DNA of 64,000 nucleotides, taken from the NCBI GenBank assembly GCA_958295725.1, contig OY282368.1, forward strand, positions 1,282,124 through 1,346,123, written 5' to 3'. This document shows, piece by piece, positions 2,718 to 59,813 of the stretch. The DNA is from an uncultured Alphaproteobacteria bacterium (GTDB lineage Bacteria > Pseudomonadota > Alphaproteobacteria > UBA2966). Both the position numbers and the translations under genes were made by a program. Position 1 is the first letter of the stretch; every line of letters begins with the position of its first letter. The notes beneath the pieces are model-generated. The model was not told the origin of the DNA. It worked only from the letters and a program-made list of their open reading frames with translations, and did not search any database.

Positions 2718-2930
2718 ACGGCGGCTGGAGAGTCGGGGATGGGCCCGCGTCGCTCCCCGGCCCTCCGCTCCGCCGGGCAATCCCTTCCCGATCCTTCCAT
2801 AACCGGAGACGGCGGACGGCGCCGGGCCGTGGGCGGCGGCTGTCGTGTGGCCTTGGCGGGCGACGTGTGCTTATAGTGCCGTCATCGGCCGCTTCTGTAA
2901 CTGTCGCTGGTTCCGGGGAGGGACGAACAC

Positions 2931-3395
2931 ATGGCGGGGAGCCTCAACAAGGTGCAACTCATCGGCAATCTCGGGCGCGACCCCGAGGTGCGAAACACGC
3001 AATCGGGCGATCAGATCGTGCATCTCTCGGTGGCGACCAGCGAGACCTGGCGCGACCGGCAGTCCGGCGAACGCCGGGAGCGTACCGAATGGCACCGGGT
3101 GGTGATCTTCAGCCAGCAACTCGGGGACGTGGCCAAGCAATATCTGCGCAAGGGGTCCAAGGTCTACCTCGAGGGTCAGCTGCAGACCCGCAAGTGGACG
3201 GATCAGGAGGGGCGCGACCGCTACACCACCGAGGTCGTGCTGCGGCCCTACCGGGGAGAGCTGACCATGCTCGATTCGCGGGGTAGCGGCGGCGGGGAGT
3301 TCGGCGCGCCGGACTCCGGCGCTTCGATGGACGAGCAGTCCGCGACGCGCGAGCCCGTGGCGGGCGCCGACATCGACGACGAGATCCCGTTCTGA
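2931..3395 (+). CDS. ssb: Single-stranded DNA-binding protein
   Basis: OB-fold N-terminus (NKVQLIGNLGRDPEVR...WHRVVIF), a Gly-rich linker, and the acidic C-terminal tail DIDDEIPF typical of SSB. Confidence 0.9.
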   Translation: MAGSLNKVQLIGNLGRDPEVRNTQSGDQIVHLSVATSETWRDRQSGERRERTEWHRVVIFSQQLGDVAKQYLRKGSKVYLEGQLQTRKWTDQEGRDRYTTEVVLRPYRGELTMLDSRGSGGGEFGAPDSGASMDEQSATREPVAGADIDDEIPF

Positions 3396-3433
3396 GCGGC
3401 CGGAGGTCGCGGGCGACGTCGGCACCGGTCCGG

Positions 3434-6987: not shown

Positions 6988-7360
6988 GAGGGTTCCTCTT
7001 CGGACGACGGCGACCTGTCTAGCGCAAAACGGACGCGCGGGCACATGGTTTGCCGCGTGCGCGGCATCATGGGTGTCGTCCGGAGGCGGCAACGACGCGT
7101 TCCGCGCGGAATGGACGGCGCGGCGGTGGACCGACGCGTTGCCGCACAACGAACCGCGCCGCGACCGCTACCGGATTGGGGCGGTTCGCGGCCTTCATTC
7201 GACGGTCCCGTTGACGGCGGCCCGACCCCGTCGGGGAACCGACGAGCCTTTCATGGATGGCGACGTAGTCGTCGGCGAGGCGTTCCGGCCTGTAGGCGCC
7301 GCCGGCCGCCAGACAGGCCGGACGGAACGCCTCCGGCGAATCGAGCTCTTGTTCGGCGCT

Positions 7361-8515: not shown

Positions 8516-9017
8516 TTCTGCGTACCTCCCTTTGATCGGTTTCTCGTCTCGCCGCGGACGGGGACGATCGGGGACGATCCAGAGTCGTTCCCCTGTTCGA
8601 AATTCGGAGTGCCCCGGCCCCTTTATCGCGAGGCGAAAGGGAGAATCCCCTTCGAGCGTCAGGACACTCGACGGTCTCCGCCCGTTCGATCAGGGGGATG
8701 CACTCGTACCGTCAATATACAGCCTCGACCTCGCCATTATCAAGGCCGTGTCCTGGTTCAGGCCATATGAGGCGGGAGGGTTTCTTCGGCTGGGCGTTCG
8801 GCAAGGTACCGGACGGGCGGTCGGCCGCCTCGGGAGGTTCCTGCTCCGGCGTTCCGGAATTCGACGAGGGGTCTTGAAATCCATCACGCCCCGCCTACAT
8901 GCCTTTTACCGACGGCCGCTTCTCGCAAGGGCCGTCGCATCGTCGATCAGGCGGGGCCGAACGGCACGTCGAACCGACTGGCTGGACCCGCCGGGATATT
9001 GCTTGAAGGAGGATATC

Positions 9018-9488
9018 ATGCGCACGACAGCGTTCGACCTTTCCCCCCTTTTCCGCACGTCCATCGGTTTCGACCGCATGTCGCGTCTGCTCGATTCGGC
9101 GGCGCGTGTCGAGGACAGTGCGCTTTCCTATCCGCCCTACAACATCGCGCAGGTCGGTGAGGACAAGTACGACATCACGATGGCGCTGGCCGGGTTCACC
9201 AGGGACGATATCGAACTGACGGTCCACGAGGGCACCCTGACCGTGAAGAGCGCCCGAGGCGAAACCGGCAGCCGGGACGAAGGCCACAAGTTCCTGCATC
9301 GCGGCATCGCCGCGCGGGCCTTCGAGCGGAAGTTCCAGCTCGCCGACCACGTCGAGGTCGTGGGCGCGGAACTCGAGAACGGCCTGCTTCGGATCGATCT
9401 GGAGCGGGTCGTCCCCGAGGAGAAGAAGCCGCGCACCATCGAGATCGGTGCTCCGAGGCAGATCGAAGGCAAGGCGAAAGCCGCCTGA
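9018..9488 (+). CDS. Small heat-shock protein (Hsp20/alpha-crystallin family)
   Basis: 156 aa. RBS GAAGGAGG lies upstream. Alpha-crystallin domain (YPPYNIAQVGEDKYDITMALAGFTRDDIELTV...GLLRIDL). Confidence 0.85.
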   Translation: MRTTAFDLSPLFRTSIGFDRMSRLLDSAARVEDSALSYPPYNIAQVGEDKYDITMALAGFTRDDIELTVHEGTLTVKSARGETGSRDEGHKFLHRGIAARAFERKFQLADHVEVVGAELENGLLRIDLERVVPEEKKPRTIEIGAPRQIEGKAKAA

Positions 9489-9513
9489 CGTCTTCGGGAA
9501 TCTCCGGGAAGAA

Positions 9514-9539
9514 GGGGGGACGGCCGTGGCCGTCCCCCC
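9514..9539. terminator. Bidirectional intrinsic-terminator-like GC hairpin between convergent hsp20 and the LytTR gene
   Basis: GGGGGGACGGCC-GT-GGCCGTCCCCCC is a perfect 12-nt inverted repeat. T-rich flanks follow on both strands. Confidence 0.5.
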
Positions 9540-9558
9540 TTCGCAGCTACAGGCGTGA

Positions 9559-10359
9559 TCAAACCAGACCGGCGGCGCGGACGTCGGCGAGATAACCGCG
9601 GCTGACCGGCACTTCCCGTCCGCCGGTGAGACGAAGCACCCGGCGGCCGTTGCGGCGCGTCGTTCCGACGACGTGACCGCGTGCGACCCAGTGGGAGCGA
9701 TGCACCCGCAGGCCGTCGGTGCCGTCGAGCTCGGCGATGGCGTCGGCGAAGCGCATCAGGACCAGCGTCGACCCGGCGGTCGTGAACGCCTCGACGTAGT
9801 GATCGGCCATCTTCAGGTGGACGAGGTCGCGACCGAGTTCCGGGGGCAGACGGTCGAGGAAGCGCGCCGTTCCACCGGCGGCGACGTCGCCGCTCGCCGC
9901 CGCGGCTTCCGCGTTCTCCGGGACCCGGCGCCGCCGCGCGAGAACGGCGACCACCGTGGAGCCGATCGCCAGCATCAGCACGGCCACCGACACATAGATG
10001 ATCGGCAACGAGCTCTCGTCGGAATAGTCCGGCCGGAACAGCGCCTCGGCGGTGAACACGACGCCGGTTCCGGGGATCGCGGCCAGGAGCGCCGCTCCGG
10101 CCACCGTCGGTATCCGGGTTCGCGGCGACCCGCCGCGCGCCAGGCGCAGCGCGGTGGTCATGACGCCCGCGCAGACGAGCCAGTTGGCGCCCATCGCCAC
10201 GGCCCAATAACCCAGGCGCCCGAGCGGTCCCATCGAGTCGTAGGTGCCGAACGGCCCGATGAAGGCGAACAGCGTCACGAGGCCCGCGAGCGCCACGGCC
10301 TGGCCCACGAGCGACCTGGTACCGAGCAATTCACGATGCGCGGATGGAGAATCTGGCAT
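9559..10359 (-). CDS. Membrane-associated LytTR-family transcriptional regulator
   Basis: N-terminal TM helices. C-terminal LytTR DNA-binding domain (LVHLKMADHYVEAFTTAGSTLVLMRFADAIAELD...RVHRSHWVA). Start trimmed to MPDSP to avoid a divergent overlap. Confidence 0.6.
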   Translation of the reverse strand: MPDSPSAHRELLGTRSLVGQAVALAGLVTLFAFIGPFGTYDSMGPLGRLGYWAVAMGANWLVCAGVMTTALRLARGGSPRTRIPTVAGAALLAAIPGTGVVFTAEALFRPDYSDESSLPIIYVSVAVLMLAIGSTVVAVLARRRRVPENAEAAAASGDVAAGGTARFLDRLPPELGRDLVHLKMADHYVEAFTTAGSTLVLMRFADAIAELDGTDGLRVHRSHWVARGHVVGTTRRNGRRVLRLTGGREVPVSRGYLADVRAAGLV

Positions 10360-10465
10360 TACACGAATGATTCCGCGCCGTTCGCGTATTTGGCAATGAC
10401 CTCGTCGGCGAATGCGTTCAACACTGGCGGGGTCATGTTCAACCACTGAAACGGGAGTACGCGAA

Positions 10466-10927
10466 ATGACCCGATCGAACAACACGTTGGTGGGCCTCGC
10501 CCTCGCATGTCTCGCCCTGTTTGCCGCCCAGACCGCCCTCGCGGGTGACCTCGAGGTCCGCCTCGATGGCCTGCGCTCGGCGGACGGAGATGCCCGTATC
10601 GCGCTTCATCGCCGTGTCGACGGCGTGAAGTTTCCCGATGGCGCCGGCGTGGTCGCCGCGATATCCCGGCGGGCCGTCGCCGGTTCGATGCGCGTCGTCT
10701 TCACCGACTTGCCGCCCGGCGACTACGCGGTGGCGGCGTTTCACGACGCCGACGGAGACGGCGAGCTGGCGACGAACCTCCTGGGGATGCCGACGGAGGG
10801 CTACGGTTTCTCCAACGGCGCTCGCGGTTTCATGGGACCGCCCCGTTTCGACGCCGCGACCGTGACGGTCGGACAGGAAGCGGGCCTGCTCTCCGTCGCC
10901 GTGCCCATGGGCTATCCCGAAAGCTGA
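10466..10927 (+). CDS. Secreted DUF2141-family protein
   Basis: Signal peptide. FHDADGDGELATNLLGMPTEGYGFSNGA matches the conserved DUF2141 core. Confidence 0.55.
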   Translation: MTRSNNTLVGLALACLALFAAQTALAGDLEVRLDGLRSADGDARIALHRRVDGVKFPDGAGVVAAISRRAVAGSMRVVFTDLPPGDYAVAAFHDADGDGELATNLLGMPTEGYGFSNGARGFMGPPRFDAATVTVGQEAGLLSVAVPMGYPES

Positions 10928-10946
10928 TGCTGAAGAGGAAGACGAT

Positions 10947-12458
10947 ATGATGAAGAAACTCCCGTCCCGCCGCGACGTGTTGCTGGCTACCGCCGGCCTG
11001 CCGGCGCTGTTCGCGGCGAGGGCGGCGGTCGGCGCCACCGACGCGCCGGCCGCCACGTCGGCGCGCCAGTCCCGGACGATCGGGTTCGCTTCCGTCGTGG
11101 CGGAGGAGCTCTCGTCTCCGCTGGAGACGTCGGGCGGCCGCCCGCCGGCGGGACTCACGGGTATCCTGTGGCGCAACGGCCCGGCCGAGCACGATCGTTT
11201 CGGCCACCGCTACGGTCACTGGTTCGACGGCGACGGCATGGTGCAGGCCTTCGCCTTCACCGGAGCCGGCGTCGCGCACCGCGGCCGCGTCCTGGATACC
11301 CCCAAACGACGCCGCGAGACCCGACACGGCAAGCGCGTCGTCCCCGCGTTCGCCACGCTCCCGCCGGGGCACACGCAGGTGCTCGCGCCCGACGACATGA
11401 ACGTGGCCAACACGTCCATCCTCGCTCACGCTGGGCGCCTCATGGCCTTGTGGGAGGGCGGTTCGGCGCTGGAGATCGATCCGGAAACGCTCGCCGCCGG
11501 ACGGTTCGTCGACTGGGCGCCGAGTGTCGCCGGTGTCCCGTTCTCCGCCCATCCGAAGATCGGACGGGACGGGACGCTGTGGAACATCGGTTGCGTGCCG
11601 GGACCGCGGCCGGTACTGGTGTTCTATCGCATCGATCGGGCCGGCCGCCTCGTCAAGGCCAACGTCGCGCCGGTCGCGCCGTTGGGCATGGCGCACGATT
11701 TCGTCATGACGGCGCGGCATCTCGTCGTGATGTTGGCGCCGTTCGTGCTCGAACCCGACTTGCTGGCCTCCGGCCGCGTGAGCTTTCTCGACGCCCACGA
11801 CTGGCGTCCGGCTCTGGGTACCAGGGTCTTGACGATCGACAGGGATACGCTGGAAGTGAAACGGCGCCACGAGCTGCCGCCGGGCTTCCATTTCCACCAC
11901 GGCAACGGCTGGGAGGAGGCGGACGGGACGATCCGGCTCGATCTGTGTCAAGCGCCCGGTCCCGGGTTCGTCACCAGGGACCTGCGGGCCGCGATGCGCG
12001 GGGAGGGGCGGTTCTCCTCCGCCCATCCGAGCTACCGGCAGGTCGTCCTCGAGCCGAACGGCGCCGCCAGGGTCGGGCCGGCGGTTCCGGGCGCGGCGGA
12101 ATTCCCTCGTATCGATTCCCGTCGCACCGGGATCCGGCACGATATGGTTTTCGCGCTCGCCGACGGCGGGGAGGGGGAGGGCTGGCCGTTTTCGCGCGTC
12201 GTCCGTCTCGAGCCCGGCAACGGCGAAGTCGACAGTTGGACGTTCCCCGGGCACCGGATTCCCGAGGAGCACGTGTTCGTGCCGCGCGGCGAGGCGGAAG
12301 GCGACGGCTGGCTCGTCGGCTCCTTTCTCGATGTCCGCCGTCGCGTTACGGGGCTCGGCGTTTTCGAGGCTATGCGCCTCTCCGACGGTCCGGTGTGGGA
12401 AGGCGTCCTGCCCTATCCGCTGCCGCTCGGACTGCACGGCACGTTCGTGAAGTCGTAG
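10947..12458 (+). CDS. Carotenoid cleavage oxygenase (RPE65 family), Tat-secreted
   Basis: Tat motif SRRDVL. Four conserved iron-ligand His contexts (HTQVL..., FSAHPK, MAHDF, HFHHGNGWEE). Confidence 0.75.
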   Translation: MMKKLPSRRDVLLATAGLPALFAARAAVGATDAPAATSARQSRTIGFASVVAEELSSPLETSGGRPPAGLTGILWRNGPAEHDRFGHRYGHWFDGDGMVQAFAFTGAGVAHRGRVLDTPKRRRETRHGKRVVPAFATLPPGHTQVLAPDDMNVANTSILAHAGRLMALWEGGSALEIDPETLAAGRFVDWAPSVAGVPFSAHPKIGRDGTLWNIGCVPGPRPVLVFYRIDRAGRLVKANVAPVAPLGMAHDFVMTARHLVVMLAPFVLEPDLLASGRVSFLDAHDWRPALGTRVLTIDRDTLEVKRRHELPPGFHFHHGNGWEEADGTIRLDLCQAPGPGFVTRDLRAAMRGEGRFSSAHPSYRQVVLEPNGAARVGPAVPGAAEFPRIDSRRTGIRHDMVFALADGGEGEGWPFSRVVRLEPGNGEVDSWTFPGHRIPEEHVFVPRGEAEGDGWLVGSFLDVRRRVTGLGVFEAMRLSDGPVWEGVLPYPLPLGLHGTFVKS

Positions 12459-39338: not shown

Positions 39339-39423
39339 GGTTTCCCGTTATTCCCTTGCGATCCGGCGGGGGACGGAGGCGATCGTTCCAGTCTTCCGCC
39401 TCGATTATACACCACGTCGAAAG

Positions 39424-39917
39424 GCGCGGCGTCCGCACAATCCGCACACCCTCCGGGGGTCGAACCCGGCGTGGCGTCCGCACAATCCGCACACCCTTCG
39501 GGGGTCGAGCCCGGCGTGGCGATCCGCACAATCCGCACACTCTCCGGGGGTCGAACCCGGCGTGGCGATCCGCACAATCCGCACACCCTTCGAGGGTCGA
39601 ACCCGGCGCGGCGATCCGCACGATCCGCACACTCTCCGGGGGTCGAACCCGGCGCGGCAATCCGCACGATCCGCACACTCTCCGGGGGTCGAGCCCGGCG
39701 CGGCGATCCGCACGATCCGCACACTCTCCGGGGGTCGAACCCGGCGCGGCGATCCGCACGATCCGCACACCCTCCGGGGGTCGAGCCCGGCGCGGCGATC
39801 CGCACGATCCGCACACCCTTCGCGGGTCGAGCCCGGCGCGGCGATCCGCACGATCCGCACACTCTCCGGGGGTCGAACCCGGCGCGGCGATCCGCACAAT
39901 CCGCACACCGTCGGGCC
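39424..39917. repeat. Tandem array of about 11 direct repeats of a 45-46-bp unit (no spacers)
   Basis: Unit (G)ATCCGCACAATCCGCACA-CCCTCCGGGGGTCGAACCCGG-CGTGGC. It contains an internal ATCCGCACA duplication and the palindrome CCGGG-GGTCGAA-CCCGG. Variant positions are caatcc/cgatcc, ccctcc/cccttc/actctc, gaaccc/gagccc and gcgtgg/gcgcgg. Confidence 0.9.
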
Positions 39918-39961
39918 GCATATTCCCGGAGCGCCAACCCGGCGCGCGACGGATTTTGACC

Positions 39962-41350
39962 TGTCGAGAACATTTTGAGTTGACCGGATTATGTACCAAA
40001 TGGATTGACCGCTTCTGTTGGGGTTGTTGGCCCTGTGGGGAAGTGGTCAGGCGCGGGGCGGCTGTCCACTTGTCCACAGGGCGCCGGCGGGTTGCGTCGA
40101 AGCGGGTCACGCGGCCTTGCGGGTTTGGGTTTCGAGCGGGGTTCCGTCGGCTTGGTAGTGAGCGAGGCGCCTGGGTCCGTGGAAGACGGCGAGGGTGTCG
40201 TCGGGGTACTCGTGCACCCGGACCTTGACCTTGACGTAGTGGTGGCGATGTCGCCCGGCGGGGATCTGCAGGCTGCGTCCCTTGTAGCGCACGGTGTTGT
40301 CGCCTGACACGGTGCGGTCCTCCTGGACGCAGAGGATGTCTTCCAAGGCGCCGGCGAAGGGCACGAAGGCCGAACCCTCGGCCTCGGGCGGGGTCGCGAA
40401 GCGTCTGTTGTGGTCCGGCAGGTAGACCTCCTCGAGGAAGCGGTTGGCCTCGGCCATGTCGGTGATGCCGGCGAGCCTGAGTTCCTGGGGCAGGCGCTTC
40501 TGCACGGTGGCGAACATGCGCTCCGAGCGCCCCCTGGCCTCGGGCGAGTAGGCGGCGATGTGCTCGATGCCGAGTTGGTGAAGCGCGCGACCGACCTGGG
40601 TCGGAGTGTCCTTGTCCACCTTGCCGCCGGCCTCGGGGGTGCGCCAGTAGTGGCTGCCGCGGTCGGTGTAGAGCGAACAGAACAGTCCGCGCTCGCGGAT
40701 CACCTCGCGGAGCGCCCGGAAGCTCGACATGGTGCCCTCCTCGGTGACGAAGAAGGCCGAGTAGACCTCGCTGGTGGCGTCGTCCAGGGTGACGATCAGG
40801 TCCCACTCCCGACCGGGTGCCCACTCATGGCGCGAGCCGTCCTGATGCAGCATCATGCCGGGCAGTGCCCGGCGCGGCCGCTTGCGCCGGTGGGCGCCGC
40901 GCCGGGGCGCCGCGCGCCTGCGGCCATGAGCCTGCAAGGTCAGCCGAACCCAGTTGTAGCTGCGCTTGATGCCGTGCGCGGTGACCAGCTTCTCGTGAAA
41001 ATGCTTGGCGTTGAAGTCCCAGTAGCGGGTGTCGAACAACGCCAGAACCCGCGCCACCTCGTCCACGCCGGCGCGGCGCGCCGAGACCCGGCCCAGACGG
41101 CGGTCGTACAACCCCTCCGCCCCCTCCGCCTCGTAGCGGTCGCGCCAGCGCCGGAAGGTCCGTTCCGAAACACCCAGAACCTCCGCCGCCTCGCCTTGGC
41201 TCAACACACCCCGATGGGTGCGACCGTAAACCTCCTCGAACTTCATCAATCTCAGTCCCTGTCGCTGCTCCGTCCGACGCATCCAGTCCCTCCTTGGCCT
41301 GAATACGTTCTAAAACCGGACAGATCAGTTGGTACATAATCCGGTCATAT
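39962..41350 (-). mobile_element. Insertion sequence (ISNCY/IS481-like) with about 38-bp imperfect terminal inverted repeats
   Basis: IRL TGTCGAGAACATTTTGAGTTGACCGGATTATGTACCAA (39962..). IRR reverse complement GCTGTCGTTAACAGAGGATATGACCGGATTATGTACCAA (..41361). Flanked by the direct repeat GACGGATTTTGACC (39948-39961 and 41364-41377). Confidence 0.75.
40107..41282 (-). CDS. DDE transposase (rve/integrase-core; ISNCY/IS481-like)
   Basis: 391 aa. N-terminal HTH (LSQGEAAEVLGVSERTFRRWRDRYEAEG) and an integrase-core segment with a YTDRGSHY-type motif. Confidence 0.8.
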   Translation of the reverse strand: MRRTEQRQGLRLMKFEEVYGRTHRGVLSQGEAAEVLGVSERTFRRWRDRYEAEGAEGLYDRRLGRVSARRAGVDEVARVLALFDTRYWDFNAKHFHEKLVTAHGIKRSYNWVRLTLQAHGRRRAAPRRGAHRRKRPRRALPGMMLHQDGSRHEWAPGREWDLIVTLDDATSEVYSAFFVTEEGTMSSFRALREVIRERGLFCSLYTDRGSHYWRTPEAGGKVDKDTPTQVGRALHQLGIEHIAAYSPEARGRSERMFATVQKRLPQELRLAGITDMAEANRFLEEVYLPDHNRRFATPPEAEGSAFVPFAGALEDILCVQEDRTVSGDNTVRYKGRSLQIPAGRHRHHYVKVKVRVHEYPDDTLAVFHGPRRLAHYQADGTPLETQTRKAA

Positions 41351-41375
41351 CCTCTGTTAACGACAGCGACGGATT

Positions 41376-41405
41376 TTGACCTTGCGGCGTCGTTCGTGGT
41401 AGGAT
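41376..41405 (+). promoter_or_regulatory. Candidate sigma70-type promoter of SLP gene copy 1 (TTGACC-N18-TAGGAT)
   Basis: The same element with TAGGGT as the -10 is present at 56531-56560 upstream of copy 2. Its position just upstream of the 13-bp repeat tract would put the repeats in the 5' UTR. Confidence 0.3.
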
Positions 41406-41419
41406 AAGGTTGCGAACTT

Positions 41420-41549
41420 CACGGGGCCTCTTCACGGGGCCTCTTCACGGGGCCTCTTCACGGGGCCTCTTCACGGGGCCTCTTCACGGGGCCTCTTCAC
41501 GGGGCCTCTTCACGGGGCCTCTTCACGGGGCCTCTTCACGGGGCCTCTT
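41420..41549 (+). repeat. Simple sequence repeat (CACGGGGCCTCTT)x10 between the putative promoter and the RBS of the SLP gene
   Basis: Exactly 10 perfect 13-bp units. The RBS GGAGG lies 9 nt after the tract and the ATG is at 41573. Confidence 0.9.
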
Positions 41550-41572
41550 CAGGAAGCGGAGGTCCTGTTCCG

Positions 41573-42904
41573 ATGTTCTTCAGCAGTGCTCGTGGATTCG
41601 TCTTGTCGGCGGTGGCGTGCGCCCTCGTTCTCATTCTCTCCGGCTGCGGCGGCGGCGGGAGCAGCAGCGGCACCGCGCCTCCTCCGGGACGGTCGATGGC
41701 GCAACTCGATCCCGAGCCGACGCCGGCACCAACGCCAACGCCGGAGCCGACGCCGCCGGAGACGCTGAGTAATGCGCTGGCTGTTGAAACGATACAGCCG
41801 GGTGCCGTGCTGGGGATCGAGAAGGCCATCGGCGCCGAACCAAAGGCCAGCAGCAGCACGCTGTCTAGCATCACACAGTCTTCGAATACGGACGCTGATG
41901 GTGTCACGACCGACCAAGTGGAGATATTCGCGGAGTACGGAGCCACCACACCCCGTTTTTCGGTGACAAACGGAGCCGAATGGGCCATCGGCATGGATGA
42001 AGGAAATCCCATGGCGATACAGGGCTTCGACCAATCTTGGAAAGGTGCTCAGTTGATCAACACTCATCTCTCCCATATCTCCGGGGGCACCTTGTACGTC
42101 GATGCCTACACGAACATCGAGGCGCCGACGACGGAGAATGTGCCGGGACCTTCCCAAATAGTAAGGAGAGGTGATACAGTAGGCGGTGTCTTCTTTTCCA
42201 TACCGTCCTCCGGAACTCTGAACGGCGAAGATGGCGAGTTTGAGTGTGGCTCTTCTACATGTTCTTTCAACTACCGGCGGGACTTCTCCGGCCGCGGCCC
42301 CGTTACCGATATCTCAGGGACCGTCTTATTCACCCCAGCCTCTACAACGCGCACAGACACCGACTATCTGGCCGGTGGGGTCTGGCTGTTCGTTCCCGAC
42401 ACTGCGTCAAGCACCGACGACTACGTATTCGGCGTCTTTGCGCGCGGCGAGGATCCTTTCAATCAAGGGCGGATCATGGCTCTAACCGGCAGCGCGACGT
42501 ATATGGGGGGCGCCACCGGGAAATATTCGCAAAAGGATGGTAGTTCGACCACCATCGGATCCTTCGAGGCCGACGTTAGCCTGACGGCCAGCTTTGGTGC
42601 TGCCGACAGCCTTGGTACGATCAGCGGTACGATCACCGATTTCGAATTGGACGGTGAGGCGACCGCGGGCAGCTTGACCTTGGGAGAGGCCGCTATCGGC
42701 TCCGCCAACAGCGGCTTCTTCAAGGGTGCGGTGGGCGGCTCGGATGGCTCCCGCACATACGCTGGCAAGTGGGGTGGCCAGTTCTTCGGCAACGGGGCGG
42801 CCAGTACCGACCATCCGGGATCGGTTGCCGGGACGTTCGGCGCACAGTCCACGGACGAGGCTGTGAACTACATCGGCTTTTTCGGCGCGGACCGGGAGCA
42901 GTAA
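41573..42904 (+). CDS. Surface lipoprotein with TbpB/fHbp-like C-terminal beta-barrel (putative Slam/T11SS cargo), copy 1
   Basis: Lipobox LILSGC followed by a Gly/Ser/Pro-rich linker. Handle-domain-like motifs (ATYMGGATGKY, FEADVSLTASFG...LGTISGTI). C-terminal barrel signature YAGKWGGQFFGNGA...GSVAGTFGA...YIGFFGADREQ. Confidence 0.65.
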   Translation: MFFSSARGFVLSAVACALVLILSGCGGGGSSSGTAPPPGRSMAQLDPEPTPAPTPTPEPTPPETLSNALAVETIQPGAVLGIEKAIGAEPKASSSTLSSITQSSNTDADGVTTDQVEIFAEYGATTPRFSVTNGAEWAIGMDEGNPMAIQGFDQSWKGAQLINTHLSHISGGTLYVDAYTNIEAPTTENVPGPSQIVRRGDTVGGVFFSIPSSGTLNGEDGEFECGSSTCSFNYRRDFSGRGPVTDISGTVLFTPASTTRTDTDYLAGGVWLFVPDTASSTDDYVFGVFARGEDPFNQGRIMALTGSATYMGGATGKYSQKDGSSTTIGSFEADVSLTASFGAADSLGTISGTITDFELDGEATAGSLTLGEAAIGSANSGFFKGAVGGSDGSRTYAGKWGGQFFGNGAASTDHPGSVAGTFGAQSTDEAVNYIGFFGADREQ

Positions 42905-42971
42905 CGCGATATCCAATCTCGCAACCCCGAACGGGAGAAGGGCGGCCCCGCGGCTGCCCTTCTTTTTCTCC

Positions 42972-44327
42972 ATGATGACGATGAAGTGGATCTGCGCCCT
43001 CGCCGTCGCCGTTCTGGTCCACGCTTCGGCGCTCGCCGCTTCCGACCGTTCCCATCTGTCCTCCGACCCCCGGGTCAACGACGCCCGGACACTCATCGAA
43101 AGCGGCCGCTTCGCCGAGGCGCTGGACGTCCTGCGCCCGCTGGCGCCGGACCATCCGGACCGGACGGACGTCCTCTTCCTCCTCGGTCTGGCCGCCGTCG
43201 AGGCCTCCCGGCGGGCCGACACCGGGGAAGCGGAACGGACCGTCCTGCTCGACGAGGCCATCGCCGCGCTCCGCGCCATCCTGATCGATCGGCCGGGTCT
43301 CGTGCGCGTGCGCCTGGAGCTGGCGCGGGCGTTCTTCCTCAAGCGCGAGGACGACCTCTCGCGCGAGCATTTCGAGCGCGTGCTGGCCGGCGGGCCGTCG
43401 CCGGCGATGGTCGCCAACATCCGCCGTTATCTGGCGGAAATGCGGGAGCGCCGGCGTTGGAGCGCCTGGTTCGGCGCGGCGCTGGCGCCGGACAGCAATC
43501 TCAACACGGCCTCGGACTCGGACGTCATCTACATCCGCGGCCTGCCGTTCCGCCGCGGGGCGGACGCGGGCCCCCGCTCGGGGGTGGGCGCCATCCTCTG
43601 GACGGGCGGCGAATACCAGCACCCCCTCGGCCAGCGCCTGCGCCTGCGCGCGGGCGCCGACCTCGCTCGCCGGGAGTATGCCGGAAGCGGCTTCGATCGG
43701 ACCTTTCTGTCCGGGCACGTCGGGCCGCGCTGGCTGGCGGACGCGAAGACCGAGGCGAGCCTGCTCGCCAGCGCCCGGCGCAGCTGGAGAGCCGGGGCGC
43801 CGGAGAGCCATGACCTCGGCGCCCGTCTGGAGGGCGAGCGCCGCTTCTCCCGACGCGTGACGGCGAGCGCGCGAACCTCCCTGCACTGGCGCGAATACCG
43901 GAGCGACCGACGCCTCGACGGGCCGGTTTTCGATCTCTCCCTGGGCGCCGCATGGCTCGCGACGCCGACCGTGCGGTTCGACGCGACGCTCGGCTATGCG
44001 CGTGAACGTCCGGGGCGAACGGTCTGGCGCAATACCAGCCGATGGGCGCGGGCCGGTTTCTCCATGGCGCTGCCGCTGGGCTTCACCGTCGGCGTCGGCG
44101 GTGAGTTGCGCCGGACAAGGTACGAGGGCCGGTCGCCGTACACGCTCGGCGGCGCGTCCCGCGAGGACCGGGTCCGGGTGCTGCGGATCTCGACGTTCAA
44201 TCGGGTCTTCACCCTGTACGGATACAGTCCGCGGCTCGTGCTGGCGAACGAGGCGCGCGACTCCAACGCGCAATTGCACGACTACAAGCGCAATCGCGCC
44301 GAATTGCGATTCGTGCGGCAGTTCTAG
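42972..44327 (+). CDS. Slam (surface lipoprotein assembly modulator)/DUF560 outer-membrane protein, type XI secretion, copy 1
   Basis: Signal peptide. N-terminal TPR-like periplasmic region. DUF560 onset motif RWSAWFGAALAPDSNLN. An alternating beta-strand-rich C-terminal half ending in the aromatic residue (RFVRQF) typical of OM barrels. Confidence 0.7.
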   Translation: MMTMKWICALAVAVLVHASALAASDRSHLSSDPRVNDARTLIESGRFAEALDVLRPLAPDHPDRTDVLFLLGLAAVEASRRADTGEAERTVLLDEAIAALRAILIDRPGLVRVRLELARAFFLKREDDLSREHFERVLAGGPSPAMVANIRRYLAEMRERRRWSAWFGAALAPDSNLNTASDSDVIYIRGLPFRRGADAGPRSGVGAILWTGGEYQHPLGQRLRLRAGADLARREYAGSGFDRTFLSGHVGPRWLADAKTEASLLASARRSWRAGAPESHDLGARLEGERRFSRRVTASARTSLHWREYRSDRRLDGPVFDLSLGAAWLATPTVRFDATLGYARERPGRTVWRNTSRWARAGFSMALPLGFTVGVGGELRRTRYEGRSPYTLGGASREDRVRVLRISTFNRVFTLYGYSPRLVLANEARDSNAQLHDYKRNRAELRFVRQF

Positions 44328-44520
44328 GCTCAGGATTCATAACCGGACCTGCTCATCCGCACGACTCGTCCAGCGACGGGAGTGCCGATCATGGACTTCA
44401 TCGCCGTCGGGTCCATCCATACTCCCCCCTGAAAGGGGGAGGAGTGGCGCACCGGACATTGCCGTCTTGACGATTCCGGTGTCGCGCGGGTGGAATCGCC
44501 GTGGGGTCTCGCTCCCGGTC

Positions 44521-44555
44521 CCCGGCGTGGCGATCCGCACAATCCGCACACCGTC
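44521..44555. repeat. Solitary copy of the terminal variant of the 45-bp repeat unit
   Basis: CCCGGCGTGGCGATCCGCACAATCCGCACACCGTCGG. It matches the last unit of the array at 39424-39917, including the ...CCGTCGG ending. Confidence 0.85.
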
Positions 44556-54206: not shown

Positions 54207-54329
54207 CCCATCGAGCGCATGTTCGACAGAATCAAGGACTGGCGGCGTATCGCCACACGATACGACCGATGCGCCCACACCTTCTTCAGCGCCATCTGCA
54301 TCGCCGCTACCGTCATCTTCCGGTTATGA
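54207..54329 (+). pseudogene. C-terminal remnant of an IS5-family transposase
   Basis: IERMFDRIKDWRRIATRYDRCAHTFFSAICIAATVIFRL matches the conserved IS5/IS427 transposase C-terminus (ERFFxxIKxxRRIATRYDK). No upstream catalytic domain was found. Confidence 0.6.
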
Positions 54330-54579
54330 GTCCCGAGCCCGGATTTCCGACCGGACCCGACGTCCGGTCAACCCGTGATTCCATTTCTTGAAAATTCGCC
54401 AGGGCAACTGCATGGATGGGAATATATCGAAAAGGGTTGGGGGCCGTTCATGGCCGGGGGAGGGGCCTGCTCCGCGGTCGCCGATAGTCTCCTCCTTCCC
54501 GCGTTCCTCACGATGGGCCGCCGTTCCCGACCGCGCCGCGGGCGGCCGGGCCGCTCTACGCGGCCGCCCGCGGCGCGGC

Positions 54580-54882
54580 CTACGGAAGCAGCTTGAGCAA
54601 GGCGAAGGTCAAGCCGGCGTTGGCGAGCACGATGCCGACGGCAATCCCGACGAACCGGACGGTCACGCGGGTTTCGAGGGCGGCAAGGTCGGCTTTCGTC
54701 GCCATCTTGTCCTCGATGTGTTCGATCTTGTCTTCAAGGTGGGCGATGTCGGTCTTGGCGGCGACGCCTCCGGTGATGGCGTCGCGAACCGTCGCCACGA
54801 CGCTTTCGGCCTGGCGTTCGTCGAACCCGGCTTCCCGGAGCGCCTTGGCGGCGGCGCAGGTGTCGAAGGCGGTAGCGGTCAT
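54580..54882 (-). CDS. DUF1640-like small coiled-coil/TM protein, tandem paralogue 1 of 5
   Basis: N-terminal MTATAFDTCAAAKALREAGFDERQAE, a central coiled coil, and C-terminal TM GIAVGIVLANAGLTFALLKLLP. Confidence 0.5.
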   Translation of the reverse strand: MTATAFDTCAAAKALREAGFDERQAESVVATVRDAITGGVAAKTDIAHLEDKIEHIEDKMATKADLAALETRVTVRFVGIAVGIVLANAGLTFALLKLLP

Positions 54883-54909
54883 GCGGCGGTTCCCCCGGTC
54901 GGGCGCGGC

Positions 54910-55173
54910 CTACGGAAGCAGCTTGAGCAAGGCGAAGGTCAAGCCGGCGTTGGCGAGAACGATGCCGACGGCAATCCCGACGAACCGGACGGTCATGCGG
55001 GTTTCGAGGGCGGCAATCTCGATCCTGAGGTCAGCTTTGGTCGCCAGTTCGTTCCGGTCGGCGGCAGTGGCGTCGCGCATGACGGCGACGGCGGCTTCGG
55101 CCTGGCGTTCGTCGAACCCGGCTTCCCGAAGGGTCTTGGCGGCGGCGCAGGTGTCGAAGGCGGTAGCGGTCAT
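54910..55173 (-). CDS. DUF1640-like small coiled-coil/TM protein, tandem paralogue 2 of 5
   Basis: Same N- and C-terminal modules with a different central segment. Start trimmed to MTATAF. Confidence 0.5.
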   Translation of the reverse strand: MTATAFDTCAAAKTLREAGFDERQAEAAVAVMRDATAADRNELATKADLRIEIAALETRMTVRFVGIAVGIVLANAGLTFALLKLLP

Positions 55174-55199
55174 GCGGCGGTTCCCCGGTCGGGCGCGGC

Positions 55200-55451
55200 C
55201 TACGGAAGCAGCTTGATGAGCGCGACGACGGCGGCGACGATGGCTCCGGCCTGCATCCACGAGGCGCGGTACATCCGCGCTTCGAGAGCGGCAATCTCGA
55301 TCCTGAGGTCAGCTTTGGTCGCCAGTTCGTTCCGGTCGGCGGCAGTGGCGTCGCGCATGACGGCGACGGCGGCTTCGGCCTGGCGTTCGTCGAACCCGGC
55401 TTCCCGAAGGGTCTTGGCGGCGGCGTAGGTGTCGAAGGCAGTGGCGGTCAT
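55200..55451 (-). CDS. DUF1640-like small coiled-coil/TM protein, tandem paralogue 3 of 5
   Basis: Same N-terminus. The C-terminal TM has diverged (WMQAGAIVAAVVALIKLLP). Confidence 0.5.
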   Translation of the reverse strand: MTATAFDTYAAAKTLREAGFDERQAEAAVAVMRDATAADRNELATKADLRIEIAALEARMYRASWMQAGAIVAAVVALIKLLP

Positions 55452-55506
55452 GCGGCGGTTCCCCGGTCGGGCGCGGCCTACGGAAGCAGCTTGAGGGCGG
55501 CGCCGA

Positions 55507-55758
55507 TCAAGCCGCCGGCGGAAGCAGCTTGAGCAAGGCGAAGGTCAAGCCGGCGTTGGCGAACACGATCCCGATAGCGACCTTGAGCATGTCGGCCTTG
55601 AGATCGGCGAGATCGGCCTTGTCGGCCTTGGTGGCCATCTTGTCTTCAAGGCGGGCGATGTCGGTCTTGGTGGCGACGCCTTCGGCCTGGCGTTCGTCGA
55701 ACCCGGCTTCCCGGAGCGCCTTGGCGGCGGCGCAGGTGTCGAAGGCGGTGGCGGTCAT
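55507..55758 (-). CDS. DUF1640-like small coiled-coil/TM protein, tandem paralogue 4 of 5
   Basis: Same N-terminus and a shortened central region. A 3' duplication scar (LKLLPPAA plus a vestigial repeat at 55490-55520). Confidence 0.45.
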   Translation of the reverse strand: MTATAFDTCAAAKALREAGFDERQAEGVATKTDIARLEDKMATKADKADLADLKADMLKVAIGIVFANAGLTFALLKLLPPAA

Positions 55759-55784
55759 GCGGCGGTTCCCCGGTCGGGCGCGGC

Positions 55785-56024
55785 CTACGGAAGCAGCTTG
55801 AGCAAGCCGACGATGAGCACGGCCTGTCCGGCGGCGACGGCGAAGACGAAGCGGACCAGCCGGGTTTCGAGGTTGGCGAGATCGGCCTTCGTCGCCAGCG
55901 TGTCCCGCTCGGCGGCAGTGGCGTCGCGCATGACGGCGACGGCGGCTTCGGCCTGGCGTTCGTCGAACCCGGCTTCCCGAAGAGTCTTGGCGGCGGCGTA
56001 AGTGTCGAAGGCGGTGGCGGGCAT
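55785..56024 (-). CDS. DUF1640-like small coiled-coil/TM protein, tandem paralogue 5 of 5
   Basis: MPATAFDTYAAAKTLREAGFDERQAE... The track ORF extends to 56090, and the start is uncertain. Confidence 0.45.
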   Translation of the reverse strand: MPATAFDTYAAAKTLREAGFDERQAEAAVAVMRDATAAERDTLATKADLANLETRLVRFVFAVAAGQAVLIVGLLKLLP

Positions 56025-56186
56025 GAAGCGATCATGGGCCATCACGGGTCCTTGCGCAAGTTCCGCACGGTCCCGCAACATCCCGTCCATGCCCGTTTCA
56101 GATTGTTGGCGAAATTGGGGGTGTAATCCGATGTCCAGAAGAAATATCGCATTTTTCTGTGGATTTCAGGACATTTAGCGGCGGAT

Positions 56187-56230
56187 TCCCAATCCGCAGG
56201 CCGGAGGTTCGAATCCCTCCGGGGTCGCCA
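56187..56230 (+). other. tRNA-Gly(CCC)-like 3' fragment (anticodon arm, imperfect T-arm, acceptor 3' strand plus CCA) lacking a 5' half
   Basis: GCGGA-TTCCCAA-TCCGC stem-loop with anticodon CCC. GGTTCGAATCC T-loop. ...GGGGTCGCCA at the end. The upstream 30 nt cannot form the D-arm or acceptor 5' strand. Confidence 0.35.
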
Positions 56231-56574
56231 AGCCTCTCCTTCCAGAAACCCTGGAGAAACAGCGACTTTCACGGAACGAGGCCAAAGAAATTGGCTCGAT
56301 TGGCGAATCGCAGGCATGTCCCGGCCGTGGCGGTCGGACATGGCAGCCTCTCCTATATCCGGGGAACCTGAACCACATGCCGCTCGAATACTGAATGCCG
56401 CTTACAGGTCCTGAGCCTGGCGACACACGACCGCACCGGGCACTCGACGGACATACCCCTGCCGAGTACCTTCACTCGCTCACAGCCAATGAGACCCCAT
56501 CGTCTCATATATCCTGAACCAGGACGAATTTTGACCTTGCGGCGTCGTTCGTGGTAGGGTAGGGTTGCGAACTT

Positions 56575-56605
56575 CACGGGGCCTCTTATCTTCACGGGGC
56601 CTCTT
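56575..56605 (+). repeat. Two copies of the CACGGGGCCTCTT unit (separated by ATCTT) upstream of SLP gene copy 2
   Basis: Same promoter-proximal context as 41420-41549, but 2 units rather than 10. Confidence 0.85.
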
Positions 56606-56628
56606 ATTAAGAAACAGAGAGGTTCCGA

Positions 56629-58164
56629 ATGTCTATCAACGGTACGAGTGGATTCGTCTTGTCGGCGGCGGCGTGCGCGATCGTGCTGTCCGGCTGCGGC
56701 GGCGGCGGCGGCGGCTCGTCGCCGGCGAAAGAGATCGCGGATTTGGCCGAAGGCGGCCGTCTACAGATCATGAAAGCCGCCGGGAACGACCCCGCGCCGA
56801 GCGGCAGCGTGATGCAATCCTCGAATGCGACGGACGGCGTGACGAAGGACAGCATCGGCGTCATGGCAAAGCACGAGAACGGGCAGGTGACGTTCGCCGT
56901 AGACTACGACGACGGCTCCGGGGGAGACCCCGAGATAACGATGGGCACGGCGGACGACCTGCGCGCGAGGTTCTCCGGCGACGTCATTTGCGAACAGTGC
57001 GACGCCAAGCCGTTCAGCGGCAACGCCAGGTGGAACGGCGCCGAACTGCGAAAGTCGTACGGGGACGGAACGTTGTGGGTCGATGTCTACACGGATATCG
57101 AGAAACCGACGACGGAGACGGTGACGACCGGCGGCGACGCTCCTCAAACCGGCGATGGCACCCGGGATGTTCCTACCGGGACGCGGATATCGTTTACGCA
57201 ATTCATCGGAGGCCGCGTCGACATCGATAGGCCAGGTGGGTTTAGCACTCTTGGGACACTGGATGGCGCTATGGGTACGTTCACGTGCCCGTCGAGTTGT
57301 GTTGTCAGTAACCACATCGTGGCAGGGGGGAGTTGGACCTTCACCCCCACCCGGCCGCCGGGAGCCCTTGACGTTCTAAGCAACGCGGCCGGCGTCGTCC
57401 TTACAGGGAACTTCGATGAGACTCGAACTGACGGCACCTTCAACGGCGCGGCGGGATACTTCAAATGCCTGTCCCGGTTGACGGGAAGTTGCGGTCGTGG
57501 CGTATCGAACGGCCGCACTACGCTCAGTGGCGAGTGGGTATTCATTCCCACCACCCCCACGCCAGCAGGTACGACGACGACACGCACCGTACAGGATGCC
57601 GACTATCTGGCCGGCGGAGTCTGGTTGTACGTTCCGGAGAGCGGCGACGCTTATCAGTTCGGCGCCTTCGTAGACGGCGGCCAGCCCTTTCTCCAGAGCC
57701 GTATCGAGGGCCTGACGGGCACCGCGAAGTATGCAGGAGACGCGACCGGTATCTACGTGGAAAAGGAATCCTCCACCGCCGCCGCCGAGATCGGATATTT
57801 CGACGCGGAGGTGACGTTGACGGCCGACTTCGGCACGAATGCCGAGCTGGGAACGATCCGTGGAGTCATCGATAACTTCGTCGAGGAGTCGACCGACGAG
57901 GCCATTGTCGGGGATCCGGAGGTGACGCTGCGGCAGGCTGACATCGGGTCCGCGGACAGCGGTTTCTTCAAGGGCAAGACGACGGCAACCCTCTCCGGCA
58001 GAGAGTTCACCGGCAAATGGGGTGGCCAGTTCTACGGCAACGGCGCCACCGCCACCGCCCACCCCGGTTCCGTCGCCGGCACGTTCGGCGGCGCGGCGCC
58101 GGAGAACGCCGACGACGGTTACGAAGCCTCGTTCGTAGGGGCGTACGGGGCCTACAAACAGTAA
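56629..58164 (+). CDS. Surface lipoprotein with TbpB/fHbp-like C-terminal beta-barrel (putative Slam/T11SS cargo), copy 2
   Basis: Lipobox VLSGC plus a Gly-rich linker. Its central region differs from copy 1. Conserved handle motifs (AKYAGDATGIY, FDAEVTLTADFG...LGTIRGVI) and C-terminal barrel (FTGKWGGQFYGNGA...GSVAGTFGG...FVGAYGAYKQ). Confidence 0.65.
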   Translation: MSINGTSGFVLSAAACAIVLSGCGGGGGGSSPAKEIADLAEGGRLQIMKAAGNDPAPSGSVMQSSNATDGVTKDSIGVMAKHENGQVTFAVDYDDGSGGDPEITMGTADDLRARFSGDVICEQCDAKPFSGNARWNGAELRKSYGDGTLWVDVYTDIEKPTTETVTTGGDAPQTGDGTRDVPTGTRISFTQFIGGRVDIDRPGGFSTLGTLDGAMGTFTCPSSCVVSNHIVAGGSWTFTPTRPPGALDVLSNAAGVVLTGNFDETRTDGTFNGAAGYFKCLSRLTGSCGRGVSNGRTTLSGEWVFIPTTPTPAGTTTTRTVQDADYLAGGVWLYVPESGDAYQFGAFVDGGQPFLQSRIEGLTGTAKYAGDATGIYVEKESSTAAAEIGYFDAEVTLTADFGTNAELGTIRGVIDNFVEESTDEAIVGDPEVTLRQADIGSADSGFFKGKTTATLSGREFTGKWGGQFYGNGATATAHPGSVAGTFGGAAPENADDGYEASFVGAYGAYKQ

Positions 58165-58204
58165 CGCCGCAGGCCGTCCCGAAACGGAAAGAAGGCATCG
58201 CGAG

Positions 58205-59578
58205 ATGCCTTCTTTTTCGTTCGCGCCCCGGCTGTTCGGCGCGCTCGCCGCCGTCCTGTTCCTTCTCCCGGTCCTCGCGACCGTCGCGGCTTCCGACCGT
58301 TCCCACCTGTCCTCCGACCCCCGGGTCAACGACGCCCGGACACTCATCGAAAGCGGCCGCTTCGCCGAGGCGCTGGACGTCCTGCGCCCGCTGGCGCCGG
58401 ACCATCCGGACCGGACGGACGTCCTCTTCCTCCTCGGTCTGGCCGCCGTCGAGGCCTCCCGGCGGGCCGACACCGGGGAAGCGGAACGAACCGTCCTGCT
58501 CGACGAGGCCATCGCCGCGCTCCGCGCCATCCTGATCGATCGGCCGGGTCTCGTGCGCGTGCGCCTGGAGCTGGCGCGGGCGTTCTTCCTCAAGCGCGAG
58601 GACGACCTCTCGCGCGAGCATTTCGAGCGCGTGCTGGCCGGCGGGCCGTCGCCGGCGATGGTCGCCAACATCCGCCGTTATCTGGCGGAAATGCGGGAGC
58701 GCCGGCGTTGGAGCGCCTGGTTCGGCGCGGCGCTGGCGCCGGACAGCAATCTCAACACGGCCTCGGACTCGGACGTCATCTACATCCGCGGTCTGCCGTT
58801 CCGCCGCGGGGCGGACGCGGGCCCCCGCTCGGGGGTGGGCGCCATCCTCTGGACGGGCGGCGAATACCAGCACCCCCTCGGCCAGCGCCTGCGCCTGCGC
58901 GCGGGCGCCGACCTCGCTCGCCGGGAGTATGCCGGAAGCGGCTTCGATCGGACCTTTCTGTCCGGGCACGTCGGGCCGCGCTGGCTGGCGGACGCGAAGA
59001 CCGAGGCGAGCCTGCTCGCCAGCGCCCGGCGCAGCTGGAGAGCCGGGGCGCCGGAGAGCCATGACCTCGGCGCCCGTCTGGAGGGCGAGCGCCGCTTCTC
59101 CCGACGCGTGACGGCGAGCGCGCGAACCTCCCTGCACTGGCGCGAATACCGGAGCGACCGACGCCTCGACGGGCCGGTTTTCGATCTCTCCCTGGGCGCC
59201 GCATGGCTCGCGACGCCGACCGTGCGGTTCGATGCGACGCTCGGCTATGCGCGTGAACGCCCGGGGCGAACGGTCTGGCGCAATACCAGCCGATGGGCGC
59301 GGGCCGGTTTCTCCATGGCGCTGCCGCTGGGCTTCACCGTCGGCGTCGGCGGTGAATTGCGCCGGACAGGGTACGAGGGCCGGTCGCCGTACACGCTCGG
59401 CGGCGCGTCCCGCGAGGACCGGGTCCGGGTGCTGCGGATCTCGACGTTCAATCGGGTCTTCACCCTGTACGGATACAGTCCGCGGCTCGTGCTGGCGAAC
59501 GAGGCGCGCGACTCCAACGCGCAACTGCACGACTACAAGCGCAACCGCGCCGAATTGCGATTCGTGCGGCAGTTCTAG
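58205..59578 (+). CDS. Slam/DUF560 outer-membrane protein, type XI secretion, copy 2
   Basis: Mature region essentially identical to copy 1. Only the signal peptide and a few residues differ. Confidence 0.7.
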   Translation: MPSFSFAPRLFGALAAVLFLLPVLATVAASDRSHLSSDPRVNDARTLIESGRFAEALDVLRPLAPDHPDRTDVLFLLGLAAVEASRRADTGEAERTVLLDEAIAALRAILIDRPGLVRVRLELARAFFLKREDDLSREHFERVLAGGPSPAMVANIRRYLAEMRERRRWSAWFGAALAPDSNLNTASDSDVIYIRGLPFRRGADAGPRSGVGAILWTGGEYQHPLGQRLRLRAGADLARREYAGSGFDRTFLSGHVGPRWLADAKTEASLLASARRSWRAGAPESHDLGARLEGERRFSRRVTASARTSLHWREYRSDRRLDGPVFDLSLGAAWLATPTVRFDATLGYARERPGRTVWRNTSRWARAGFSMALPLGFTVGVGGELRRTGYEGRSPYTLGGASREDRVRVLRISTFNRVFTLYGYSPRLVLANEARDSNAQLHDYKRNRAELRFVRQF

Positions 59579-59813
59579 GCTCAGGACTCATAACCGGACC
59601 TGCTCATCCGCAAGACTCGTCCAGCGACGGGAGTGCCGATCATGGACTTCATCGCCGTCGGGTCCATCCATACTCCCCCCCTGAAAGGGGAAGAAGTGGC
59701 GCACCGGACATTGCCGTCTTGACGATTCCGGTGTCGCGCGGGTGGAATCGCCGTGGGGTCTCGCTCCCGGTCCCCGATGCGGCGACCCGGCGGGAGGCCG
59801 GAAGGAGGGACGG

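Follow-up and report, generated by a model that had tools for sequence, protein, structure and literature searches.

Why does one bacterial contig carry five versions of a very small gene, head to tail, that agree in their beginnings and mostly in their ends but differ in their middles? The question is raised by a stretch of contig OY282368.1 from an uncultured alphaproteobacterium, 64,000 nt of which were analysed here (the window, in which all positions are counted), where the minus strand between 54580 and 56042 encodes a tandem array of five DUF1640-like proteins. The explanation that best covers the locus as a whole, to which a probability of roughly 60% is given, is that these are paralogous and probably co-transcribed minimal CCDC90-like proteins, predicted to form tail-anchored trimers, the genes of which recombine with one another within the array. 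The locus reveals no new kind of system; it adds a member to a known family, in the form of a tandem array whose copies recombine.

A tandem array of five genes

The array consists of five co-oriented, intact open reading frames (ORFs), with products listed as 79 or 85, 83, 83, 87 and 100 aa and referred to here as g1 to g5. A preliminary description of the locus had reported a head-to-tail array with conserved ends and variable middles, and the ORFs, the repeats and the alignment agree with it. A period of 278 nt is found by Tandem Repeats Finder (4.3 copies, 74% matches, score 1098), five copies at a spacing of 266–307 nt are found by the repeat scan of the window, and in the protein alignment the N-terminus M.ATAFDT.AAAK.LREAGFDERQAE, the ATKAD motif and the L.KLLP end are all invariant. 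The transmembrane (TM) helix GLTFALLKLLP, which had been assigned to most of the copies, is common to g2, g4 and g5, but g1 and g3 have different hydrophobic tails.

The first gene, g1, encodes 85 aa if translated from the ATG at 56042 (55785–56042, beginning MAHDRFMPATAFDT) and 79 aa if translated from the ATG at 56024 (55785–56024, beginning MPATAFDT). The former is probably the start, because it has AAGGA 8 nt upstream and is the choice of the gene callers on related contigs; the array would then end at 56042 rather than 56024. The g1 product consists of the head, a LATKAD beta-layer motif and a TM segment of type B (VRFVFAVAAGQAVLIVGLLKLLP). In g2 (55507–55758, 83 aa), the motifs VATKTD, MATKAD and KADKAD are followed by TM type A with a PPAA tail, and the second helix of the head has been lost through a 13-codon in-frame gap relative to g5 that has GCGTCG microhomology on its flanks. 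The 83 aa product of g3 (55200–55451) has the same head and middle as that of g4 and ends in TM type C (YRASWMQAGAIVAAVVALIKLLP), while g4 (54910–55173, 87 aa) joins this middle to a g5-like TM of type A. The longest stalk is that of g5 (54580–54882, 100 aa), in which the head is followed by VAAKTD, two heptads, MATKAD and TM type A; the two heptads, IAHLEDK and IEHIEDK, are a 21 bp tandem duplication at 54704–54747. All of these features are on the minus strand.

The spacers between the genes are near-identical, as had been noticed. The sequence GCCGCGCCCGACCGGGGAACCGCCGC, in which a GGGGAA resembles a Shine-Dalgarno sequence, occupies 26 nt between g1 and g2 (55759–55784), and again 26 nt between g3 and g4 (55174–55199), and has one extra G, making 27 nt, between g4 and g5 (54883–54909). 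Between g2 and g3 the spacer is 55 nt in total, because the usual 26 nt (55452–55477) is preceded, directly after the g2 stop codon, by 29 nt of a vestigial gene 3' end (55478–55506, TCGGCGCCGCCCTCAAGCTGCTTCCGTAG, ..GAALKLLP*) left by a lost or recombined copy. This gene end is the vestigial partial duplication of the preliminary description.

There can be little doubt that all five ORFs are true DUF1640-like genes. The guanine plus cytosine (GC) content at their codon positions 1, 2 and 3 is 0.68, 0.47 and 0.85, against 0.66, 0.48 and 0.90 in the adjacent aldehyde dehydrogenase gene. All five are intact on two other metagenome contigs of 97.5–99% nucleotide identity, which gives three assemblies in all, and a reading of the five-unit DNA alignment finds the differences between copies in the head region to be mostly synonymous. 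It might be argued that the array is non-functional DNA, made of chance ORFs in GC-rich repeats or of decaying pseudogenes, or that the coding strand is the plus strand, given that plus-strand ORFs of 346 and 207 aa overlap the array, that the Pfam scores fall under threshold, that the g2 head is partly lost and that a vestigial gene end exists. However, only the minus-strand frames of the genes have a suitable codon-position GC, that of the plus-strand ORFs and of the alternative minus-strand frames being atypical, and no Pfam match was found for the plus-strand and alternative-frame ORFs over the array. The persistence of five intact copies in three strains, the mostly synonymous differences, and the recurrence of the same plan of head, beta-layer and TM helix in several phyla, within a family of 10,501 representatives, likewise speak against non-functional DNA. 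That view is already largely refuted and is extremely unlikely to be correct; homology, conservation and minus-strand coding, on which the preliminary description had let its case depend, were all found. For annotation, this means that sub-threshold PF07798 matches on ORFs of 80–100 aa in GC-rich tandem DNA are real genes.

Family membership

The proposed DUF1640 homology is borne out by Pfam, in which PF07798 (CCDC90-like, formerly DUF1640) matches all five proteins with E-values of 1.1e-7 to 2e-4, and by the relatives, 76 of 78 of which match the same model when aligned members are scanned singly (best E 1.3e-12). A 32-member family profile also matches human CCDC90B (PDB 6H9M, E 6.2e-5), over the head motif FDT..L...GF...QAE. 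A word-indexed search retrieved 317 relatives, most of which have precomputed PF07798 matches, and an exhaustive profile search retrieved 10,501 representatives of 50%-identity clusters at E ≤ 1e-3, with 1,314 of them at E ≤ 1e-10; among the 150 representatives listed, lengths are 74–273 aa and mostly below 200. The NCBIfam scan of the five proteins gave noise-level matches only (E > 0.005). On these matches, the five proteins are assigned to the CCDC90-like/DUF1640 (MCUR1/CCDC90B) family as minimal prokaryotic members, and the array products, judged by sequence, are part of the numerous small DUF1640-like proteins of prokaryotes.

The presence of the MCUR1/CCDC90B family in prokaryotes and organelles has already been reported (PMC4786415). 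With MCUR1/CCDC90B (PF07798; 6H9M) the window proteins have in common the head motif, a beta-layer at the junction of head and stalk, the coiled-coil stalk and the C-terminal TM helix. They differ in size, at 79–100 aa against a model of 175 positions, in having a stalk of one to four heptads, in being without an N-terminal targeting or TM segment, and in that their genes form a five-gene recombining array. The mitochondrial function of MCUR1/CCDC90B, as an MCU or metabolic scaffold, does not transfer directly to the window proteins, and the prokaryotic branch of the family has no known function.

Predicted architecture and topology

Each protein has an acidic two-helix head of about 35 residues, FDT..L.EAGFDERQAE, a stalk and a hydrophobic C-terminus. 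The published beta-layer consensus, [aliphatic]-A-T-K-[polar]-[DE], is found at the start of the stalk (PMC4786415), and crystal structures show that such hexad or nonad elements make a three-residue beta-layer in a trimeric coiled coil (Hartmann et al. 2016, PMC4786415). The ATKAD that never varies in the array is, by its sequence, this motif. There are one to three beta-layer motifs per protein, g1, g3 and g4 having one (LATKAD), and the stalk is one to four heptads long. In g5 it reads VAAKTD + IAHLEDK + IEHIEDK + MATKAD + LAALETR, that is, hexad, two heptads, hexad, heptad, and in g2 it reads VATKTD + IARLEDK + MATKADKAD + LADLKAD. At least one such motif is present in 120 of 127 relatives.

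A similar alternation is known from Tcar0761/DUF3782 (5APZ, PMC4786415), where [aliphatic]-A-T-K-x-D hexads or nonads stand between heptads as they do in g5 and g2. Tcar0761 differs in having 14 consecutive nonads and neither a DUF1640 head nor a TM anchor, and the alignment of g5 with its MATKDD construct 5APZ is weak (E 0.07) and covers the motif only.

The TM helix was judged by Kyte-Doolittle hydropathy, and signal peptides by inspection. The 18-residue maximum within the last 30 residues is 1.91–2.13 in all five proteins and exceeds 1.6 in 124 of 127 relatives, and the layout of coiled coil and C-terminal TM helix given in the preliminary description is upheld. The helix is the sole hydrophobic stretch of each protein and is followed by 0–3 residues, and the N-termini of the five proteins are hydrophilic and acidic, with no signal peptide or lipobox found by inspection. 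Lacking a signal peptide and having hardly anything past the TM helix, the proteins would probably be tail-anchored inner-membrane trimers whose head and stalk face the cytoplasm. This topology fits the proposal that the mitochondrial homologues face the matrix. As in the solved relatives, the beta-layers would both interrupt the parallel trimeric coiled coil and nucleate it, and the trimers would keep the head on the cytoplasmic side, at a short distance from the membrane that differs from copy to copy.

It had also been suggested that the array encodes a variable surface or envelope component or a phage receptor, in which case the coiled coil would lie outside the cytoplasm and be diversified by the array. 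Modular variation and a multi-copy layout do resemble those of antigen families, the array adjoins a Slam surface-lipoprotein locus, and a Borrelia protein annotated as DUF1640 is seroreactive in infected mice (PMC6856195). The hydrophilic N-terminus (MTATAFDTCAAAKALREAGFDERQAE), with neither signal peptide nor lipobox, argues against this, as does the position of the only hydrophobic segment at the extreme C-terminus, so that export of the head would mean translocating 55–75 hydrophilic residues without a signal. The head, moreover, is the most conserved part of the protein and not a hidden anchor, and the other Slam locus in the window is without such an array. A surface location is very unlikely.

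The Bdr proteins of Borrelia are similar in architecture, with a small N-terminal domain that has a GF.EE turn, a coiled coil of variable repeats and a C-terminal hydrophobic anchor, and with many polymorphic paralogues per genome. Bdr paralogues differ mainly in repeat number, and bdr genes are as a rule scattered over cp32 prophage plasmids and not in tandem; the one examined is single on plasmid cp32-1 of strain B31. Homology with Bdr was considered and rejected, the comparison of the family alignment with the B31 cp32-1 Bdr by hhalign having a probability of 0.2%. Bdr matches the Pfam KID repeat PF02524 and not PF07798, and the window proteins have no KID match.

Mosaic structure and recombination

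In the DNA alignment of the five units, the head and the start-codon region are 91–99% identical in every pair. Units 3 and 4 are identical at 79 of 79 nt in the middle and at 68% of positions in the pre-TM and TM segment, whereas units 4 and 5 are 49% identical in the middle and match at 102 of 104 nt in the pre-TM and TM segment. Because it has the identity of g3 in the middle and that of g5 in the TM segment, g4 is a chimera of a g3-like 5' part joined to a g5-like 3' part. As for g2, its stalk module is also that of g5, and its anchor is also that of g4 and g5.

Inside the array, 12 single-nucleotide polymorphisms (SNPs) separate the window from the two related contigs, and a column-by-column reading of the alignments finds that about 8 of them shift the site to a state that another paralogue has, as do TGC/TAC at codon 9 of g2, g3 and g5, and ACC/ACT, GCT/GCC and GTT/GTG. 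Swaps of this kind are the signature of gene conversion between paralogues, and together with the segment-wise mosaicism they substantiate the recombination hot-spot that had been put forward as one possibility. Unequal crossing-over is suggested by the chimeras and by the vestigial gene end.

It is very probable that the array evolves by gene conversion and unequal exchange among its copies, with slippage of heptads in addition. The origin would be tandem duplication of a unit of about 280 bp, after which homologous recombination among the copies would drive the changes in the array. Gene conversion and unequal crossing-over would hold the spacer and the head near-identical and would at the same time shuffle the middle modules and the TM anchors, of which there are three kinds each, and slippage would gain or lose single heptads. 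The locus is in this respect a neat example of modular concerted evolution, although a modest surprise. Exact-pattern scans of Joint Genome Institute metagenome contigs for the spacer plus start codon gave no match, and an exact look-up of g5 in the contig index gave no record.

Arrays in related genomes

A genome scan identified 78 loci of the family, nearly all of them from metagenome-assembled genomes (MAGs), of Alphaproteobacteria, Chloroflexota/Dehalococcoidia, Binatia, Nitrospirales, Acidobacteriota and Gammaproteobacteria. At least two adjacent family genes are present at 21 of the 80 loci analysed, and one locus has about 22. The arrangement is thus not unique, and is less unusual than the preliminary description had supposed. 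In the largest case, an alphaproteobacterial MAG (OZ241350.1, 1002756–1015037, locus L030), about 19–22 same-strand tandem genes of 89–152 aa lie at 2846–11014 of the locus. Their head DNA is 97% identical, two TM tails alternate, and the number of ALRADTRADIA / LDTGLAAVRAD repeats varies, the stalk repeats being 7–11 residues long. Next to this array are short interspersed repeats and a remnant that resembles HsdR. In another MAG the family is found at no fewer than 14 scattered loci. As a lead, the larger arrays of other genomes are more striking than the one in the window, and no description of tandem arrays was found in the searchable literature on DUF1640/PF07798.

The close relatives (loci L005–L082) are almost all from MAGs whose phyla are typical of the microbiomes of sponges and corals, a distribution uncorrected for the composition of the database. 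Going by the isolate names, the hosts of several are presumably Aplysina, Rhopaloeides and Porites.

Pervasive horizontal transfer across phyla was rejected on the ground that the best matches are mostly within-phylum. Also rejected was a conserved partner gene, the top clusters of neighbours being antisense shadow ORFs or lineage-specific synteny.

Are the genes cargo of mobile elements or phages, that is, "moron"-like genes for superinfection exclusion, lysis control or defence that have accumulated at an integration hot-spot? Several observations are compatible with this. The phage family PHROG 17872 matches all five proteins by hidden Markov model (E 1.5e-13, for g5, to 1.9e-8), in three of them (g2, g4 and g5) over the full length; two IMG/VR viral contigs encode relatives, one of them beside a tape-measure gene; an IS5 remnant stands on one side of the array and a tRNA-like fragment on the other; a 520 bp two-gene cassette is 93% identical in two unrelated contexts; and some relatives stand beside CRISPR-Cas, HicB, restriction-modification or insertion sequence (IS) genes. 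The two viral contigs are, however, the only matches in a scan of 2.9 million with the 32-sequence alignment, and tblastn found no match in 50,697 phage records (INPHARED) or 72,556 plasmids (PLSDB). No family among the PADLOC-DB defence models was matched by the five proteins at E ≤ 0.1. Unlike a phage gene, moreover, the array lies outside any prophage, its neighbours being genes of metabolism and transport (Aldedh, TauD and an ATP-binding cassette (ABC) transporter) and the Slam locus, with no prophage genes found near it, and its GC content of 0.67–0.70 equals that of its surroundings. The mostly within-phylum best matches argue against rampant transfer, and there is no conserved partner gene. 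PHROG 17872 has no assigned function and adds no mechanism. A role as mobile cargo is on balance improbable, and the phage-receptor or immunity-related roles that had been mentioned alongside a surface role are, with no signal peptide, no PADLOC match, no nearby prophage genes and only two relatives on viral contigs, not upheld.

Some details of these other contexts may be recorded. At L023, L041 and L053 (Binatia/Nitrospirales) the family gene is within about 3 kb or less of type I CRISPR-Cas-like genes (Cas5/Cas7/Cas8-like), and at L034, L037, L049 and L058 (Acidobacteriota/Chloroflexota) it adjoins a HicB-like antitoxin gene, both being identified by eye; other copies are beside restriction-modification or IS genes. 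The cassette is at 6741–7260 of L089 and 6755–7260 of L090, which have no other sequence in common, and one of its products, of 84 aa, is identical in both; it is either a paralogous site under gene conversion or a transferred cassette. In L091 (4633–6026) there is an insertion of about 1.4 kb relative to a 96–98% identical contig (L090 7110–7490); the insertion encodes a 364 aa protein without a Pfam match and is flanked by a duplication of about 380 bp that includes the 3' part of a DUF1640-like gene. This may be an unclassified mobile element.

Expression and possible function

The layout of the array resembles that of an operon because the spacers are identical stretches of 26–27 nt and there is one strong hairpin, after g5, and co-transcription of the five genes is plausible from the sequence. 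The hairpin (54529–54580, minus strand) is a GC-rich stem-loop with a perfect 20 bp stem, beginning with the final base of the stop codon of g5. Its minimum free energy is -70.5 kcal/mol (z -3.2), it is found after the last gene only, and it has no U tract; it is probably the end of the array transcript.

As to what the proteins do, the most likely role, by analogy with MCUR1/CCDC90B, would be that of a scaffold or adaptor, anchored in the membrane, for a partner in the cytoplasm; its probability is put fairly low because no partner is indicated.

A recombining array of minimal CCDC90-like, tail-anchored trimers remains the best explanation of the whole, but a number of points weigh against it. 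The PF07798 bit scores, 21.7–32.3, are all below the gathering threshold of 33.5, because only 26–67 of the 175 model positions are covered, and the second head helix, nearly invariant in the family, is missing in g2. The trimeric state and the topology are what we infer from the sequences. The AlphaFold2 monomer model of g5, from a 78-sequence alignment, is of low confidence (predicted local distance difference test score, pLDDT, 64); it has helices at 8–17, 22–60 and 66–97 with a break exactly at residues 61–65, at MATKAD, a point in favour of the beta-layer, and a Foldseek search of PDB with this low-confidence model gave no match at E < 1. A consensus scan found neither a sigma-70 promoter nor a canonical terminator with a U tract. 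The copy-number comparison that had been proposed gives five copies in all three assemblies, so that ongoing unequal crossing-over is not directly seen. The analysis of neighbours across lineages found no conserved gene that would point to a partner, and the analogy behind a scaffold role is with mitochondrial homologues that are distant and themselves of debated function.

A further possibility is that the arrays are not a by-product of repeat instability but a dedicated, co-expressed "length library" of tail-anchored trimeric tethers. If this were so, tethers with homogenised heads, graded stalks and alternative TM anchors might set the spacing from the membrane, or the sorting, of a cytoplasmic partner, perhaps as heterotrimers, and such libraries might be characteristic of symbiont MAGs, many of the records having names that suggest a sponge or coral association, and occasionally be moved by mobile elements. 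This is quite unlikely. Whatever their function, the copies here and in the larger arrays are natural series of minimal variants with the same head, one to three beta-layers, one to four heptads and three anchors, which could be used to probe the behaviour of beta-layers and of stalk length in a membrane-anchored trimer, the binding of the head, and how gene conversion fixes one module while it shuffles others.

Surroundings of the array

The preliminary description had placed the array between an IS5 remnant and a tRNA-like fragment, near a Slam locus, and all three are present. Downstream, at about 54207–54317 on the plus strand, is the C-terminal remnant of an IS5-family transposase (DDE_Tnp_1_2, E 3e-6). 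Upstream, at 56157–56222 on the plus strand, is a degenerate tRNA-Gly(CCC)-like fragment with the anticodon loop UUCCCAA, which scores 22.5 bits against a gathering threshold of 29; there are no ARAGORN tRNAs and no gathering-level Rfam matches in the window. Between the array and the Slam locus, in a stretch of low GC content (0.57–0.59), a plus-strand ORF of 40 aa (56395–56517) has a weak Pfam match to the C-terminal domain of Xre/MbcA/ParS antitoxins (E 0.0035). This ORF and the tRNA-like fragment together suggest the debris of an old integration event.

The Slam locus itself (56629–59578) consists of a lipoprotein gene and SlipAM (E 3e-15). It is one of two paralogous Slam loci in the window, at 41368–44537 and 56523–59789, which form a direct duplication of about 3 kb at a distance of 15.25 kb. 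Within the segments that were detected as repeats, identity is 99% over a 300 nt stretch of SlipAM and only 77–81% between the lipoprotein ORFs. The DUF1640 array is within the interval between the two copies, immediately upstream of the second. A functional link between array and Slam was rejected, as the paralogous Slam locus at 41.4–44.5 kb has no array.

Upstream of the first Slam-associated lipoprotein gene there is a 13 bp tandem repeat, CTTCACGGGGCCT, of about 11 copies (41417–41559), which ends 14 nt before the start codon; at the second Slam locus about one unit of it is present (56572–56587). The repeat may make this a phase-variable 5' region. Another tandem repeat, of 46 bp, is present at 39385–40007, in at least about 10 copies of 78–94% identity.

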